Assembly: GCA_038998335.1 (NCBI GenBank)
Contig: JAVZHQ010000002.1
Coordinates: forward strand, 32,001 to 96,000
Source of the DNA: Candidatus Aenigmatarchaeota archaeon
GTDB taxonomy: Archaea > Aenigmatarchaeota > Aenigmatarchaeia > CG10238-14 > SCSR01
DNA: 64,000 nucleotides
Direction of reading: 5' to 3'
Shown: positions 36,546 to 64,000 of the stretch, piece after piece
Layout of the letters: every line of letters starts with the position of its first letter
Numbering within the stretch: position 1 is the first letter of the stretch
Notes under the pieces: generated by a model
Told to the model about the DNA's origin: nothing
The model's input: the letters and a program-made list of their open reading frames with translations, nothing else
The model's database searches: none
Program-made: the position numbers and the translations under genes

Positions 36546-38195
36546 TTATACTTCTTCTTCACTGGGCGTTGGTGTTGAAGGTGCAGCTTTCTCAAGCTTG
36601 CTTGCTGCTATAACATCATCTATTCTCAATATCATCTCTGCAGCTTCTGCAGCTGATTTTATAGCTTGTAGCTTTACTTTTAATGGTTCTATAACTTCCA
36701 TCTCTTCCGCATCCCTTACCTTTCCGTTGAAAATATCTAGGCCATAATAAGTTTTTCCTTGCTCGTGAGCTGCTCTTAGCTCGACAAGCATGTCTATCGG
36801 ATCCAAACCTGCATTTTCTGCTAAGCTTCTTGGTATAACTTCCATAGCATCTGCAAAAGCAAGTATTGCTAATTGCTCTCTACCAGAAAACTTTTCTGCA
36901 AACTTTCTTAACCTTCTTGCAATCTCTGCTTCTGGTGCTCCAGCCCCAGGGATCACTTTCCCTAGCTCAAGAGCAGAGGCTACTGCTCCTACTGCATCTT
37001 CCACACTTCTGTCAACCTCGTCAACAACATGCTCTGTACTTCCCCTTACTAGAATTGTTACTGCTTTTGGATCTTTGCATTCGCGAACAAAGGTCATGGC
37101 TTCTCCTGCAATTTTCTTTTCTTCAACAATCTTTGCAAAACCTAAATCTTCTGGAGTCAAGTCATCTAAGTTAGTGACAATTCTTCCTCCTGTAGCTTTT
37201 GCTAGAGCTTCCATGTCTGAGCGTTTAACTCTCCTGCAAGCTAAAATTCCTTCTTTCGCAAGATAATGTTGAGCTAAATCATCTATTCCTTTCTGGCAAA
37301 AAACAACGTTTGCTCCACTTGCAACTATTTTCTTTACCATATCTTTTAGCATTTTCTGCTCTTGCTCTAGAAAAGCTTGCATTTGCTCAGGAGAGGTTAT
37401 CCTAATCTCAGCATCAGTTTCTGTTTCCTTTATTTCTAGAGCACAATCTAGTAAAGCTATCTTAGCATTTTTAACTACTTTTGGCATTCCTGGATGAACT
37501 ACTTCTTTATCTATAACAATTCCTTTTATAAGTTCTGTATCTTCTGAAGAGCCTCCATGCTTCTTTTCTCTTTTTATATTTTCCCTGTTAACAACAATCT
37601 TTCCGTTTTGCACTTCTGCTACTGTTCTTACTGCTTCAACAACAAGCTCAGCTATTTTTGGTGAAGCTTTTTCCATCGATTTCCCAGACATTGCTGTGAT
37701 TGCAATTTTTTTCAAAATTTCTTTATCTTCGAGGGAAACGGGTTTTGCTATTTCTTCAAGAATCCTTAAGGCTTCGTCTTTAGCGATTCTAAAACCCTTT
37801 GTTATAACTGTTGGATGAATTTCTTGGTCTAAAAGCTCTTCTGCTTTTTTTAGAAGTTCGCCAGCAAGAACTACTGAAGTTGTTGTACCGTCGCCTACCT
37901 CTTCATTTTGCGTTTTTGCAACTTCTACCATCATCTTTGCTGAAGGATGCTCTATTTCCATTTCTTCAAGTATAGTTACTCCATCGTTTGTTATTACTAT
38001 ATCTCCAACAGAATCCACTAGCATCTTGTCCATTCCTTTTGGGCCTAATGTAGTTCTTACAGCATCTGCAACTGCCTTAGCTGCAGCTATATTATTTCTT
38101 TGAGCATCTCTTCCAACAGTCCTTAAAGTGCCTTCAGGCAATATCAAGACTGGTTGCCCACCCAACTGACCAATTAAAGCTTTTCCGTTAGTCAT
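36546..38195 (-). CDS. thsA: Thermosome (group II chaperonin) subunit
   Basis: [32 protein letters not shown]. Confidence 0.98.
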
Positions 38196-38257
38196 ATCAT
38201 CCCTCCTATTGAATCAGAAATCTTAAATGTGTATGTGGGTATACAAGTATTTAAGCT

Positions 38258-39169
38258 TTACTCTACCTTTTCTTCCATTAATTTTTCTAATTCTTTTACA
38301 CTCTCTATTTCAGGAATTTCTGATTCTAAGATTATTGGCACTTCTTCCACAGATTTTTTTTCACATTTTTTCGCAACAAAAGCACATCTTGAAGAAAAAA
38401 GAAAAGACATTCTTTTAATAGAGATAGCATCTTTCTCTATTTTTTTTGTATTTTTAGAAAGGCTTACTATCATTGAAAATTTTTCTCTTCCAACAATCTC
38501 AAAAGGAGCAGAATAAGTTGGGCTGTTAGTTAAACCTATTCTTGAAAACTCTTTAGAAACTTTTTCTTGAAATTCATTTTTTGGCTTAAGATAGGCTGGT
38601 TCGCAAGCTTTAAGCTTGAAAGGAGATTTTAAATCAACTTTAAGAACTCTTTCCAAACTTCTTACAGTCTCTAAGGAAGGGTTAACTTTTTTGTTCTCTA
38701 TTTCATATAAAGCCTTTTTTGTTACTCCAACTAACTTTGAAAGTTCTTCAAGAGTAAAACCTAATTCTTTCCTTCTGCTTTTCAAAATTTCAGCATCTAT
38801 CGGAACTACGTGCTTTCCTTTTGTAGCTTCTATTTCTGGAACTTCTTCTTCTAGAAATTTTTCAAAAAAATAAGGGGTAATGACCGGTAAGTTAAACCTT
38901 GAATAGATTATTTCTTTTTTCAAGAATTCTCTGTTTGTTTTTAATGAAATTACTAAAGGGTAAGCAGAGAGAAAGTATGAAATTGTTTTTAAGCTTAAGG
39001 CTTGCTCTTTTGTTAGACCATCTATATTGATTAAAGCTTTTATTAGAAGTAAAAACTCTTTTTTTGCTGCTATGTCAAAAGCTCCCTCACTAACCAAAAC
39101 TTGAAATCTACGAGAAAGCAAAGAATTAACTATTTTTTCAATCAAAAAAGATTTATTAAACATTTGCAT
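38258..39169 (-). CDS. COG1395-type archaeal HTH (XRE/cro) transcriptional regulator
   Basis: FDIAAKK...LLIKALINID N-terminal domain, central XRE HTH (LEELSKLVGVTKKALYEIE), SAPFEIV. Confidence 0.85.
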   Translation of the reverse strand: MQMFNKSFLIEKIVNSLLSRRFQVLVSEGAFDIAAKKEFLLLIKALINIDGLTKEQALSLKTISYFLSAYPLVISLKTNREFLKKEIIYSRFNLPVITPYFFEKFLEEEVPEIEATKGKHVVPIDAEILKSRRKELGFTLEELSKLVGVTKKALYEIENKKVNPSLETVRSLERVLKVDLKSPFKLKACEPAYLKPKNEFQEKVSKEFSRIGLTNSPTYSAPFEIVGREKFSMIVSLSKNTKKIEKDAISIKRMSFLFSSRCAFVAKKCEKKSVEEVPIILESEIPEIESVKELEKLMEEKVE

Positions 39170-39222
39170 CCAAATAATTATTGATAAAGAAAAGGTTAAT
39201 AAATGTGCATGTAAGTATACAA

Positions 39223-39316
39223 GGGCCTATAGCTCAGCCTGGTTAGAGCAATCGCCTTATATGGCTCGCTTTCGTGAGAAAGCGATAGGTCGAGGGTTCA
39301 AATCCCTCTAGGCCCA
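39223..39316 (+). tRNA. tRNA-Ile(TAT) with 19-nt canonical intron at 37/38 (39262..39280)
   Basis: GGGCCTA/TAGGCCC acceptor, GCTC/GAGC D stem, ATCGC-CT-TAT-A^A-GCGAT anticodon arm, central splice helix CTTA/TGAG, T arm GAGGG-TTCAAAT-CCCTC. Confidence 0.85.
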
Positions 39317-42906: not shown

Positions 42907-43031
42907 TAGCGGGGGCACGATTTGAACGTGCGACCTTTACCCCAGACTTAAGTCTGTCCGGGTGTCACAAGAGCAGCCTTATGAGCCATTCGCAAAACTT
43001 CGGCGAGCACTCCAGGCTGCTCTACCCCGCT
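42907..43031 (-). tRNA. Initiator tRNA-Met(CAT) with three introns: 29/30 (42988..43000), 38/39 or 37/38 (42963..42978), 43/44 (42937..42957)
   Basis: Removing 13, 16 and 21 nt gives AGCGGGGTAGAGCAGCCTGGAGTGCTCGCCGGGCTCATAACCCGGAGGTCGCACGTTCAAATCGTGCCCCCGCTA (75 nt), with A1-U72 and three G-C anticodon-stem pairs. 4-bp central helices TCGC/GCGA, TCAT/GTGA and ACCC/GGGT with 3-nt bulges. Confidence 0.9.
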
Positions 43032-59129: not shown

Positions 59130-59168
59130 TATTTAAGCTTAGTATTAATAATTTTTATAGGTTACGCT

Positions 59169-59253
59169 GCCCCTGTAGTCTAGCCTGGACAGGATAGAAG
59201 CTTGCGGTAAGAGTGAAAAGCTTCTGGCCCGGGTTCGAATCCCGGCAGGGGCA
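59169..59253 (+). tRNA. tRNA-Arg(GCG) with 11-nt canonical intron at 37/38 (59208..59218)
   Basis: GCCCCTG/CAGGGGC, A20, GAAGC-TT-GCG-G^A-GCTTC, CCGGG-TTCGAAT-CCCGG; central helix TTGC/GTGA. Confidence 0.9.
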
Positions 59254-59294
59254 TTAAAAATTTAAAATACCAGTATTAAAAATTGTTAGAGAAA

Positions 59295-59477: not shown

Positions 59478-60383
59478 TCATTTCAAAATGATTTTCATAA
59501 AATCATGAGCAACTTTCGTGTTCTCAAAAATCTTTTTCGCATTTTCTTCTAAATCTTTTACATCAGTATACCTTCTACTTATGTGAGTTAAAATTAATTG
59601 CTTAACGTTAGCTTTTTTTGCTATTCTTGCTGCTTGCTTAACGTCAGCATGAGCTTTTCCACTTTCTTCTTCAAGAAAAGTTCCGTCATGAATTAGCAAA
59701 TCAGCGTCTTCAGAAATTTTTACAATATTGTCGCAAGGTTTGGTATCACCTGTATAAACAACCTTTAAACCTTTTTTCAAGTTAGCAACTTCTTCAATTC
59801 TAATTTCCTTTCCCTTATACTCAGCTTTCCCATATTTTTTTAGTTTCTTAAGCCAATAACCCCTTTTCAACCCAAGCTCTTTAATTTTTTTCGAATCAAT
59901 ACTCCATCTATCCTTTTCCTTAAAAGCATAAGCTACAGAAGGAATAGAATGAAAAGCTGGAATAGAAAAAATTTGGTAATCTTCTGTTTCATCTATTAAA
60001 GTGACTTTATCGCCATGAAAAGGAACGTTTACAGCAACAACAGGAAACCTGCAACCAAAATAGCCTAAGCTTAAAATGTTTGTCACAAACTTTTCAGCTT
60101 CTGGAGCAAAAATTTTTAACTCTTTTTTTCTTTTTTCCAAGCTCATGGTTTGAAGTAAAGGAATTAAACCAGCAAAATGGTCTGCATGCCAATGGGTTAT
60201 GAAAATCTTGTCTATTTTCATAAAGCTAATTCCAGCAAGCATTAATTGCTTTTGAGTTCCTTCTCCACAATCAAAGAGCAAAGTTTCTTTTTTCTCGCTA
60301 TAGTATTCTAAAGCTATTGCTGGATGACTCCTTTCTTTGCTCGGTATACCAGAAACTGTGCCCAAAAAAGTTATTACTATCAC
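59478..60383 (-). CDS. rnz: Ribonuclease Z
   Basis: FLGT, FDCGEGTQ, THWHADH, exosite insert, YTGDT, LTHISRRY. Confidence 0.95.
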   Translation of the reverse strand: MIVITFLGTVSGIPSKERSHPAIALEYYSEKKETLLFDCGEGTQKQLMLAGISFMKIDKIFITHWHADHFAGLIPLLQTMSLEKRKKELKIFAPEAEKFVTNILSLGYFGCRFPVVAVNVPFHGDKVTLIDETEDYQIFSIPAFHSIPSVAYAFKEKDRWSIDSKKIKELGLKRGYWLKKLKKYGKAEYKGKEIRIEEVANLKKGLKVVYTGDTKPCDNIVKISEDADLLIHDGTFLEEESGKAHADVKQAARIAKKANVKQLILTHISRRYTDVKDLEENAKKIFENTKVAHDFMKIILK

Positions 60384-60405: not shown

Positions 60406-61836
60406 TTATATTAGGCTTTCCTTTTCAAAGTATTTTCTCAAGAATATACCAAAATTTTCATCTTTTTTAACTAATTCCATTATTTTTTCATTCTCGTAAA
60501 TTAGCTCAAAACCTTTTGCTAGCTGCTCTGCAATATGGTTTGGTATGCCTTTGGCTTTTAATACTTCCAGGCTTTTACTCAAGCTGTCAAGAATTTTCTC
60601 TCTTGCTGTCAAGAATTTTCTTCTAACTTCAACGCACCAAAAATTGTTTTCTATAAAAGGTCCGGTAATTGCTTGACCCTTATACTTTTCTAGAAATCTT
60701 TCAGAATCGTCTAAATCAAAAATTTTCGGCCCAACTCTTTTTTGAACTAAAGGCAGTTTAGAAATTTCCATCTCAAGCAAAACTATAGCTAAATCTTTCT
60801 CGTTAGTGTAAACATCTTTTCTTAAAACTTTAAACTCATACTTTACTTCTTCCAAAATGCTTTGAAGCCTGTCGGCAAACTTTCTTAGCTGAGGCCAAAG
60901 AATATCTGGAACAACTTTTGGCGGCAAAAACTTAACAAGTATTAGCTCAGTCCTTCTTTTCATCTGATAAACTATTAGCTCGTTTTCTGTTATTGGTTCA
61001 AGCTTCCTTTTAAAGAAAAGCTCCTCTCTTGGGTTTTCCAAAAATTCTTTTGCAAGTTTTTTAAACTTGAAGAAGTTCGTGGAAGATAAAGCAGCACAAG
61101 TATTCCTGTTTTTATCTGTTGGGTCAATAAGAATCAAGGCTTGATTTTTAAACATTTTTATAAGTTTTGGGTAATCTTTCTGCGAATAATAATTTTTAAC
61201 CTGAATTATTTCTCCCGGCTTCCAGTTAACAGCTTTTTTCATAAGGTTGAGAAAACTTTTATACTTTATTATAAGCAACTCGCAAACATAACCAGAAAAA
61301 CCTTCTGTTTTAGCGTCAGCCCCATAAATTTCGTTCGCTTCACAAAACTTCTTTAAAAGCCTTACTTCTTTTGCCATGTTTTTGGTTAAATTTTTTTCTA
61401 TAAACCTAACATGAAAAGGAGTTCTGTCAACTGCAGACTTAATTTTTTCAGGACTTTCTACCTCATAGCAAGGAACTATGTCAACGCTTATTCCTTTGAT
61501 TTTCCCAGAAACATAAGGATGTTGAGCATATTCTATGTTGTATTCACCTTTCATTCTTTCTATAACTTTCTTTCCAATTTCTAAGCCAAACCTTTCAAGC
61601 TCTTTTTCCTTCAAGCTAGGAGAAAAAAGAACAAAAATGTCAAATTCCATCTTTTCTGGAAGCCAAGTATCTCTTGTTATGCTTCCGGCAAGCATAGCTT
61701 TTGCATTGTACTTTTTTGCTTCATCATTCGCAACCTTGAGAACATGCCTAGCTAAAGATTTCAGTTTTCTTTCTTCCTCTTTTTTTGGCTTTATTTTTTC
61801 AAGTACTTCTTTCAGTACTTTAGTATACTTATCCAT
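60406..61836 (-). CDS. cca: CCA-adding tRNA nucleotidyltransferase (class I)
   Basis: GSITRDTWL, FDIFVLF, YAQHPYV, SAVDRTPFH, GFSGYVCELL. Confidence 0.95.
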   Translation of the reverse strand: MDKYTKVLKEVLEKIKPKKEEERKLKSLARHVLKVANDEAKKYNAKAMLAGSITRDTWLPEKMEFDIFVLFSPSLKEKELERFGLEIGKKVIERMKGEYNIEYAQHPYVSGKIKGISVDIVPCYEVESPEKIKSAVDRTPFHVRFIEKNLTKNMAKEVRLLKKFCEANEIYGADAKTEGFSGYVCELLIIKYKSFLNLMKKAVNWKPGEIIQVKNYYSQKDYPKLIKMFKNQALILIDPTDKNRNTCAALSSTNFFKFKKLAKEFLENPREELFFKRKLEPITENELIVYQMKRRTELILVKFLPPKVVPDILWPQLRKFADRLQSILEEVKYEFKVLRKDVYTNEKDLAIVLLEMEISKLPLVQKRVGPKIFDLDDSERFLEKYKGQAITGPFIENNFWCVEVRRKFLTAREKILDSLSKSLEVLKAKGIPNHIAEQLAKGFELIYENEKIMELVKKDENFGIFLRKYFEKESLI

Positions 61837-63784: not shown

Positions 63785-64000
63785 CTATAAAAGTTTTGAG
63801 ACATAAGCTCCTTCTTTTTTATAACCAAGCTTATAGTAATATTTTTTAACACCAGCTCCGCTTATTACCACAATTTTTTTCTTATCAAATTCTTCCTTAG
63901 CAATTCTTTCAGCCTCTTCTAAAAGTCTTCTCCCAAAACCTTTATGTTGAAAAGCCTCTTTCTTAAATTCACCTACAGGAACCAAAGGGCCATAAACATG
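63785..64000 (-). CDS. elp3: Elp3-like tRNA uridine(34) acetyltransferase, C-terminal part (5' end outside the window)
   Basis: HVYGP...FQHKGFGRRLLEEAERIA...ISGAGVKKYYYKLGY matches the Elp3 GNAT C-terminus. Confidence 0.9.
   Translation of the reverse strand, partial: HVYGPLVPVGEFKKEAFQHKGFGRRLLEEAERIAKEEFDKKKIVVISGAGVKKYYYKLGYKKEGAYVSKLL

Follow-up and report, generated by a model that had tools for sequence, protein, structure and literature searches.

A classic problem of the genetic code is how to read the AUA codon and not AUG by mistake. Two of its solutions, the TiaS/agmatidine route with tRNA-Ile2(CAU) and a tRNA-Ile with the anticodon UAU, have been treated as unrelated. In ARMAN-2, -4 and -5 (Micrarchaeota/Parvarchaeota), the pre-tRNA-Ile(UAU) has an intron at position 37/38, tRNA-Ile(CAU) and TiaS are missing, and the UAU tRNA has been proposed as a replacement of the agmatidine route (Fujishima et al. 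2011, PMC3239211). A survey of 167 genomes lists only two cases of tRNA-Ile(UAU), in Nanoarchaeum equitans and Korarchaeum cryptofilum (PMC6000648). The protein family COG1395 has the published architecture PD-(D/E)XK, HTH_3 and degenerate PD-(D/E)XK, with its function listed as unknown (PMC1189080, PMC3424549), and a table of 2012 notes that it "co-occurs with" a protein of DUF1743 and tRNA_anti, without naming TiaS (PMC3424549). Here we describe a locus that brings these subjects together. It lies in a 64,000-nucleotide stretch of a Candidatus Aenigmatarchaeota genome (GCA_038998335.1, contig JAVZHQ010000002.1, positions 32,001 to 96,000), called the window below, where the genes for the thermosome, a COG1395-type protein and tRNA-Ile(UAU) follow each other, the last two standing head to head across a 53-bp spacer.

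The locus shares several features with the described systems. As in ARMAN, a UAU isoleucine tRNA with a 37/38 intron occurs in a DPANN archaeon without tRNA-Ile(CAU) and TiaS, although the intron is 19 nt long in the window and 25 nt in ARMAN (PMC3239211); unlike the window locus, the one Micrarchaeota genome that we tested is without COG1395. The Korarchaeum gene is likewise intron-bearing and resembles that genome's own tRNA-Ile(GAU) (PMC6000648), but in contrast to the Nanoarchaeum and Korarchaeum cases, the UAU gene of Aenigmatarchaeota is a phylum-wide rule and comes with a fixed neighbor. The first-pass annotation of the window had called the tRNA rare, a description that is outdated, as several DPANN groups have a UAU tRNA as a rule (PMC3239211). 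The loss of TiaS together with a UAU tRNA is already known for DPANN archaea (ARMAN, 2011), and the tRNA alone is ordinary for them; the newer result is the locus.

The Rfam model RF00005 matched the plus strand at 39223-39316 with 65 bits (E 8e-14, model positions 1-71; gathering score 29), and the Rfam/Infernal alignment reads the loop as CUUAUA, a 20-nt insertion and GCGAU, giving the anticodon UAU and an insertion at 37/38 (Table 1). Spliced in silico, the 75-nt tRNA forms a perfect cloverleaf with the loop CUUAUAA (-31.3 kcal/mol). Its body is of the isoleucine type, as had been proposed from the sequence at first pass: it has the discriminator A73 and shares 61 of 75 bases with the genome's own tRNA-Ile(GAU), compared with 50 of 75 for the genome's own elongator tRNA-Met, and 58 of 75 with an Archaeoglobus tRNA(CAU) with an Ile-like body, which we take to be a tRNA-Ile2. 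The 5-bp stem and the CTTATA loop are kept in more than 50 orthologous tRNA genes, whose introns differ. ARAGORN labeled the gene "Stop tta" and, with the option -i, "Ser aga"; we rejected both labels as miscalls. With or without -i, the program mislabels many tRNAs in this intron-rich genome, and anticodons were read by hand from the Rfam matches.

The source genome (1.009 Mb, 33% GC) is rich in ATA codons. The open reading frames (ORFs) of at least 150 amino acids in the window contain 779 ATA, 720 ATT and 153 ATC codons, in agreement with the abundance of ATA noted earlier, and in 546 genome ORFs of at least 200 amino acids ATA is the commonest isoleucine codon (47.5% of Ile codons, 41.3 per 1000). 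TiaS was searched for genome-wide. The domain TiaS_FLD (PF08489), presumably the former DUF1743, had no match in the genome, while the four named archaeal controls were all positive, and a hidden Markov model (HMM) of full-length TiaS had no match at E ≤ 10 among all genome ORFs of at least 40 amino acids, the same model giving 80 matches among the ORFs of 80 control TiaS loci. Nor was TiaS found in any of 41 genomes of the order or of 151 sampled genomes of the phylum Aenigmatarchaeota. For the tRNA inventory, we assigned all 45 Rfam matches and three genes seen by ARAGORN only, many of them by hand, as non-canonical introns required; together they span 45 of the 46 usual archaeal anticodons. 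The set includes two CAU tRNAs only, one of the elongator type (C1:405024-405132) and the initiator in the window, with no tRNA-Ile2(CAU) and no other tRNA able to read AUA among the assigned genes. Given the lack of TiaS and of a third CAU tRNA and the share of ATA among the Ile codons, we conclude that the window tRNA, its 19-nt intron removed at 37/38, is very probably the sole AUA decoder of a lineage without TiaS and tRNA-Ile2(CAU), and that the locus stands in the place of the TiaS/agmatidine route, of which neither tiaS nor the tRNA was found.

The initiator tRNA-Met gene is itself unusual: it was missing from the Rfam matches, was labeled Lys(ttt) by ARAGORN -i, and on reading by hand appears to hold three introns of about 13, 16 and 21 nt.

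The pairing of the tRNA with COG1395 recurs widely within the phylum. COG1395 had matches in 83 of the 151 sampled Aenigmatarchaeota genomes, and we took the best-scoring COG1395 loci, one per genome, from 30 genomes of many families. In all 30, the distance from COG1395 to a tRNA-Ile(UAU) gene is at most 1 kb. The two genes are divergent within about 140 nt in 26 loci and at about 0.5-0.9 kb in two, whereas the tRNA is upstream on the same strand in L133 and on the 3′ side of COG1395 in L131. ARAGORN called "Ile tat" in nine of the loci, and an Rfam tRNA abuts the COG1395 start in 15 and the COG1395 3′ end in L131; the remaining tRNAs, rich in extra introns, were read with regular expressions and by eye. 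The tRNA also stands beside COG1395 in 16 of 20 more loci that belong to the same family as the window, and COG1395 accompanies nine of 11 tRNA loci found by pattern, down to 31% protein identity. Recurrence in 30 of 30 related loci means that the adjacency is not due to chance. The thermosome is the next most conserved neighbor of COG1395, kept on its side in 14 of the 30 loci, and a tblastn search of 41 Aenigmatarchaeota loci with COG1395 found a homolog in 24, in most cases on the downstream side of that gene; beyond the tRNA, no gene recurs in more than five of the 30.

Some relatives depart from the geometry of the window. Two loci of its genus, L005 and L009, have a tRNA-Ile(UAU) seemingly with an extra short intron after position 9 and lying about 430-750 nt from COG1395, compared with 53 in the window; in L005 the 24-nt promoter element described below still adjoins COG1395. 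Other loci of the window's family, L284, L285 and L291 among them, have spacers of about 37 nt with two crosswise TATA-like boxes, each abutting the start of the opposite gene, so that the pre-initiation complexes of the tRNA and COG1395 would overlap.

In archaea that have TiaS, COG1395 keeps similar company. An alignment of TiaS retrieved 80 TiaS loci from named archaea, about six of which have too little upstream sequence to judge. A full-length COG1395 gene lies upstream of tiaS on the opposite strand in 33 of the 80 (28 directly adjacent, five at 2-3 kb), in Methanosarcinales, Methanoperedens, Methanocellales, Methanoculleus, Methanobacteriaceae, Hydrothermarchaeota and two Thermoplasmatota; among the 80, the pair was not seen in the loci of Bathyarchaeia, Archaeoglobaceae, Hadarchaeota, Jordarchaeia and Nitrososphaeria. 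In an earlier set, which comes partly from the same genomes, COG1395 is divergent from tiaS in eight of 17 loci. The adjacency of COG1395 and tiaS, which the first-pass annotation had put forward, is thus real, and COG1395 recurs next to Ile tRNAs as well. Among loci from TiaS-bearing archaea, five have the thermosome directly downstream of COG1395. The order thermosome-COG1395-tiaS was seen in four loci, L012, L111, L120 and L126, from Methanocellales, Methanoculleus, a Methanomicrobia metagenome-assembled genome (MAG) and an unclassified MAG close to Hydrothermarchaeota. As the order thermosome-COG1395-tiaS equals the order thermosome-COG1395-tRNA-Ile(UAU), the tRNA gene sits in the slot of tiaS, and the earlier suggestion of one and the same locus holds. 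We also considered descent of the UAU gene from a tRNA-Ile2(CAU) beside tiaS and found no support for it: only four CAU tRNAs occur near tiaS in the 80 loci, three of the initiator type and one, from Archaeoglobus, Ile-like.

These comparisons make it probable that the tRNA gene replaced tiaS within one promoter architecture in an ancestor of Aenigmatarchaeota. One solution to AUA reading would then have physically supplanted the other, gene for gene, next to a protein that is conserved in archaea and uncharacterized in function. The published co-occurrence of COG1395 has a different partner from that in the window, which is a tRNA gene and not tiaS. Our literature searches, in which supplementary tables were not covered, found no paper on COG1395 dealing with tRNA, nothing relevant on TiaS or agmatidine with gene neighborhoods or regulators, and no mention of Aenigmarchaeota among the papers listed on UAU tRNAs.

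The window protein was matched by NF003162 (PRK04140, which we take to be the COG1395 family) with 204 bits, residues 6-301 aligning with positions 3-312 of the 317 in the model; this is below the curated cut-off of 263 bits, which none of the 151 Aenigmatarchaeota genomes reaches. Pfam places HTH_3 at residues 129-180. An AlphaFold model (pLDDT 95.2) predicts three domains: residues 2-111 would form an Hjc-like PD-(D/E)XK domain (VIA-align with 1gef, Z 9.0), residues 124-185 a helix-turn-helix (HTH) of the XRE/repressor type (2r1j, P22 c2, Z 10.5 over 124-184) and residues 194-300 a second PD-(D/E)XK-like domain (2czr, TIP26, Z 9.6 over 194-296). Foldseek against the Protein Data Bank gave noteworthy matches to the HTH only, the nuclease-fold domains emerging with VIA-align alone. 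The predicted architecture is that of COG1395/PAB2104 (PMC1189080, PMC3424549), in agreement with the assignment of the protein to COG1395; the available text of these two papers names neither TiaS, AUA decoding, a tRNA neighbor nor the thermosome. The HTH is nearest to DNA-binding repressors (phage, SinR) at 28-37% identity. It also matches aMBF1 (TIGR00270, E 5e-8) and ribosome-bound EDF1/Mbf1 chains. The variant site D...K(I/V)L...NID is present in the N-terminal domain, and among 46 diverse homologs F31, K44 and R91 are invariant and D32, N48 and D50 occur in at least 90%. The gene has an alternative start at a second ATG (39163), as in the 301-amino-acid database copy, with which the spacer would be 59 bp.

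The third domain recalls Tk-TIP26 of Thermococcus kodakarensis (2czr), on whose N-terminal domain residues 194-296 superpose with an rmsd of 2.6 over 92 aligned residues, so that archaeal nuclease-fold domains appear in a transcription setting on both sides. However, the identity is 8% and TIP26 has no HTH, so the likeness is one of fold only, and a contact of COG1395 with TBP is speculation.

A possible operator of COG1395 lies in the spacer. Judged by its position, TTAATAAA is a probable TATA box, lying upstream of both genes at 20-27 nt from the 5′ end of the tRNA and 27-34 nt from the ATG of COG1395. The adjoining 24-nt element (39200-39223) holds an imperfect inverted repeat, TGCAT-N6-ATACA, at 39206-39221, and the copy at the thermosome promoter a perfect one, TGTAT-N6-ATACA, at 38230-38245, next to a TATA-like TTAAATA on the minus strand at 38249-38255. 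These two copies, flanking the COG1395 gene, are the only matches of the element in the window, where none is expected; in the whole genome the core motif has four matches and the extended motif is present in three of them. In 13 related loci of several families, the element precedes the start of the thermosome gene by about 40 nt. Two Methanosarcina genomes have another motif, GTTTGNNCATCTATATA, which occurs with at most one mismatch both in the spacer between COG1395 and tiaS and directly upstream of a thermosome gene located far away, whose promoter carries GTTTGTACTTCTATATA; control matches were zero in both genomes, one of which has a third match elsewhere. Comparing the COG1395-tiaS spacers with the thermosome promoters of L111, L120, L126 and L012, we found no convincing common motif beyond TATA-box words. 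The plain repeat TGTAT-N6-ATACA was discarded as a marker, as its 20 genome matches at up to one mismatch show that it is not specific alone. A third genome copy of the element core lies at C9:3927 (minus strand), on a 6-kb contig, in or beside an ORF of 163 amino acids.

As a rule, conserved divergent gene pairs are made up of a regulator and the gene that it regulates. The locus resembles the pairs of XRE-type HTH autoregulators in having an HTH gene head to head with a conserved partner, with a short spacer that contains an inverted repeat beside the TATA box; it differs from the usual divergent regulator-target pairs in that the partner is a tRNA gene and the regulation a predicted one. 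In the explanation that we favor, the ancestral tiaS, head to head with COG1395 and then the thermosome, would have been exchanged for a tRNA-Ile(UAU) gene, and COG1395 would bind the palindrome-containing element beside the TATA boxes of the tRNA/COG1395 and thermosome promoters, tuning its own expression, that of the chaperonin and how much of the AUA decoder is made. Ile tRNAs with U34 also bind AUG, and the misreading is said to depend on tRNA concentration (PMC3895270), which provides a rationale for controlling the amount of the decoder. We lean, by a little, toward this explanation as a whole, comprising the AUA decoder, the exchange of the slot and the regulation by COG1395. On its own, the prediction that COG1395 is a sequence-specific DNA-binding regulator with these three targets is plausible but falls somewhat short of probable. 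It gives the COG1395 family a first concrete and testable functional hypothesis, and the genetically tractable Methanosarcina carries the COG1395-tiaS pair. It also makes COG1395 a pointer to a candidate regulator of the archaeal chaperonin. Our literature searches on thermosome and heat-shock regulators yielded nothing relevant, and methanogens without Phr are not known to have a heat-shock regulator.

A number of observations weigh against parts of this explanation. The genome on which the absence of tiaS and of a third CAU tRNA was judged has a completeness of 90.4%. For the tRNA precursor, a strict bulge-helix-bulge fold reaches -28.7 kcal/mol, compared with -43.7 kcal/mol for the minimum free energy (MFE) fold; the core that can be drawn has a 4-bp helix of C32-U33-U34-A35 with intron UGAG, flanked by the 3-nt bulges UA|U and AA|A, and an outer helix of 2 bp only. 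For the promoter element, occurrence upstream of COG1395 is confined to a subclade of the window's family (10 loci), most other families showing it at the thermosome promoter only, and the Methanosarcina motif, seen in two congeners, is in part no more than a TATA box.

The distribution of COG1395 outside the locus is a further point of the same kind. In Asgard archaea, COG1395 is present in 100 and TiaS in 64 of 121 genomes, the two never being adjacent, and TiaS is present in 18 of the 21 that lack COG1395. At 19 usable COG1395 loci from TiaS-less Asgard genomes, we found no tRNA within 400 nt upstream of COG1395 and no thermosome within 700 nt downstream. A scan for tRNA-Ile(UAU) gave 31 archaeal loci outside Aenigmatarchaeota (Woese-, Pace-, Nano-, Undin-, Micr-, Iain- and Nanohaloarchaea and one Thermoplasmata), none of which holds COG1395, whereas both Aenigmatarchaeota loci of the same scan do. 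In five of the genomes behind these 31 loci, searched in full, COG1395 is absent in three, partial in one and unlinked in Undinarchaeota; it was not found in one genome each of Woesearchaeota, Pacearchaeota and Micrarchaeota. It follows from these loci and genomes that tRNA-Ile(UAU) does not need COG1395, and the 68 of 151 Aenigmatarchaeota genomes without a COG1395 match indicate that the tRNA works without it inside the phylum as well. The control of AUA decoding by COG1395, suggested in the first-pass annotation, has fared unevenly: the shared promoter element speaks for it, while the missing adjacency in Asgard and other DPANN archaea, the 31 loci and the 68 genomes speak against it. A MAG contig from Thermoplasmata (L188) encodes a tRNA that has no intron, an Ile-like body and the loop CTTATAA; other members of that group have TiaS.

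The main rival is that the synteny is historical only: an ancestral thermosome-COG1395-tiaS locus lost tiaS, a tRNA gene landed there, and the pair has since been held together by interdigitating promoters in a spacer of 28-59 bp, with COG1395 having a role unrelated to AUA decoding, such as regulation of the chaperonin only or that of a DNA nuclease. Much of the above fits it, including the very short spacers between the tRNA and COG1395, the element being primarily a feature of thermosome promoters across families, the lack of adjacency in Asgard and other DPANN groups, the presence of COG1395 not tracking TiaS in Asgard, and the Aenigmatarchaeota genomes without COG1395. It requires, however, that this particular tRNA landed by chance in the slot of the enzyme that it replaced, roughly one in 1000 genes. 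Moreover, the pair outlives rearrangements, with the tRNA on the 3′ side in L131 and inverted in L133, which argues for selection on proximity and not for an unbreakable promoter, and the tRNA pairing is kept in 30 of 30 loci compared with 14 of 30 for the thermosome side. We regard a purely historical origin as possible but rather unlikely.

The regulatory reading can also be taken further, to COG1395 as an unrecognized regulator of archaea, linking the expression of the chaperonin to the capacity for AUA decoding in a regulon of translation fidelity and protein folding. The operator would co-evolve with COG1395, its promoter and that of the thermosome having one motif in common in Aenigmatarchaeota and another in Methanosarcina, and upon the replacement of TiaS, selection would have kept the new decoder under the same control, so that the tRNA would be found in the slot of tiaS at every examined locus. 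This extension is tentative, and we would not presently bet on it.

A second rival has COG1395 acting on RNA, as a nuclease-like protein with an MBF1-like HTH that binds or processes the AUA-decoding tRNA or works at the ribosome; its gene would then adjoin that of its partner, be it the TiaS enzyme or the tRNA substrate. The N-terminal domain lends this idea some substance, as at least 90% of the 46 sequences retain its polar residues D32, K44, N48 and D50, the model superposes on Hjc and an active variant site was proposed by Feder and Bujnicki (PMC1189080), as do the HTH matches to aMBF1 and to EDF1/Mbf1 at the ribosome. But the HTH is closer to DNA-binding repressors, a DNA element is common to both flanking promoters and the tRNA functions in many lineages without COG1395, and we consider an RNA-acting COG1395 improbable. 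Finally, that the window tRNA is no working AUA decoder, being a pseudogene or spliced otherwise into another anticodon, agrees with the ARAGORN labels and with the MFE fold of the precursor but is highly improbable, as no other tRNA of the genome reads its commonest Ile codon, stem and loop persist in the orthologs despite differing introns, and the Rfam alignment sets the insertion at 37/38.

Table 1. Coordinates of the locus and of other features in the 64,000-nt window
Feature	Position	Strand	Remarks
tRNA-Ile(UAU) gene	39223..39316	+	Rfam tRNA, 65 bits; no CCA encoded
tRNA-Ile(UAU) exon 1	39223-39261	+	anticodon TAT at 39258-39260
tRNA-Ile(UAU) intron, predicted	39262-39280	+	19 nt, position 37/38
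tRNA-Ile(UAU) exon 2	39281-39316	+	
Divergent promoter region, 53 bp	39170..39222	.	TATA-like TTAATAAA at 39196-39203
24-nt element TAAATGTGCATGTAAGTATACAAG, candidate operator	39200..39223	+	between TATA-like box and tRNA 5′ end
COG1395/PRK04140-type gene, 303 aa	38258..39169	-	HTH_3 E 1.2e-13; NF003162 E 2.5e-60
Second element copy, thermosome promoter	38224..38247	+	21/24 identical to the 39200-39223 copy
Thermosome (group II chaperonin) gene	36546..38195	-	ORF directly downstream of COG1395; third of the conserved trio
Initiator tRNA-Met(CAU), several introns	42907..43031	-	starts AGCGGGG, contains GGCTCATAAGG, ends CCCCGCTA; anticodon read by hand
3′ end of Elp3 gene	63791..64000	-	TIGR01211, 718.9 bits (genome C2:95791-97320); gene continues past the window

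The window holds further genes related to tRNA. Elp3, reported at the window end by the first-pass annotation, is indeed encoded there; it is a general candidate for the modification of U34, and archaeal control genomes have Elp3 as well. Near it lie other tRNA-maturation genes, for a tRNase Z-like protein (59478-60383) and the CCA-adding enzyme (60406-61836), all three on the minus strand. The tRNA at 59168-59254 (plus strand) is ambiguous: ARAGORN calls it Pro(cgg) or Phe(gaa), and it can be read as Arg(GCG) with a canonical 37/38 intron. Elsewhere in the genome, the tRNAs for Thr(GGU), Gly(GCC) and Pro(CGG), read by hand at C1:241491-241576, C1:568138-568223 and C1:763881-763967, are each interrupted within the anticodon stem, at position 29/30, by a 12-nt intron of similar sequence (AAnTTAGnGGAA-like), and many further tRNAs have non-canonical or multiple introns. 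At C1:653838-654731 (minus strand), the 3′ part of a tRNA-Asn(GUU)-like gene follows after about 800 nt, with a duplicated piece of the 5′ acceptor and D-arm; the gene may have an exceptionally long intron or be a disrupted copy.

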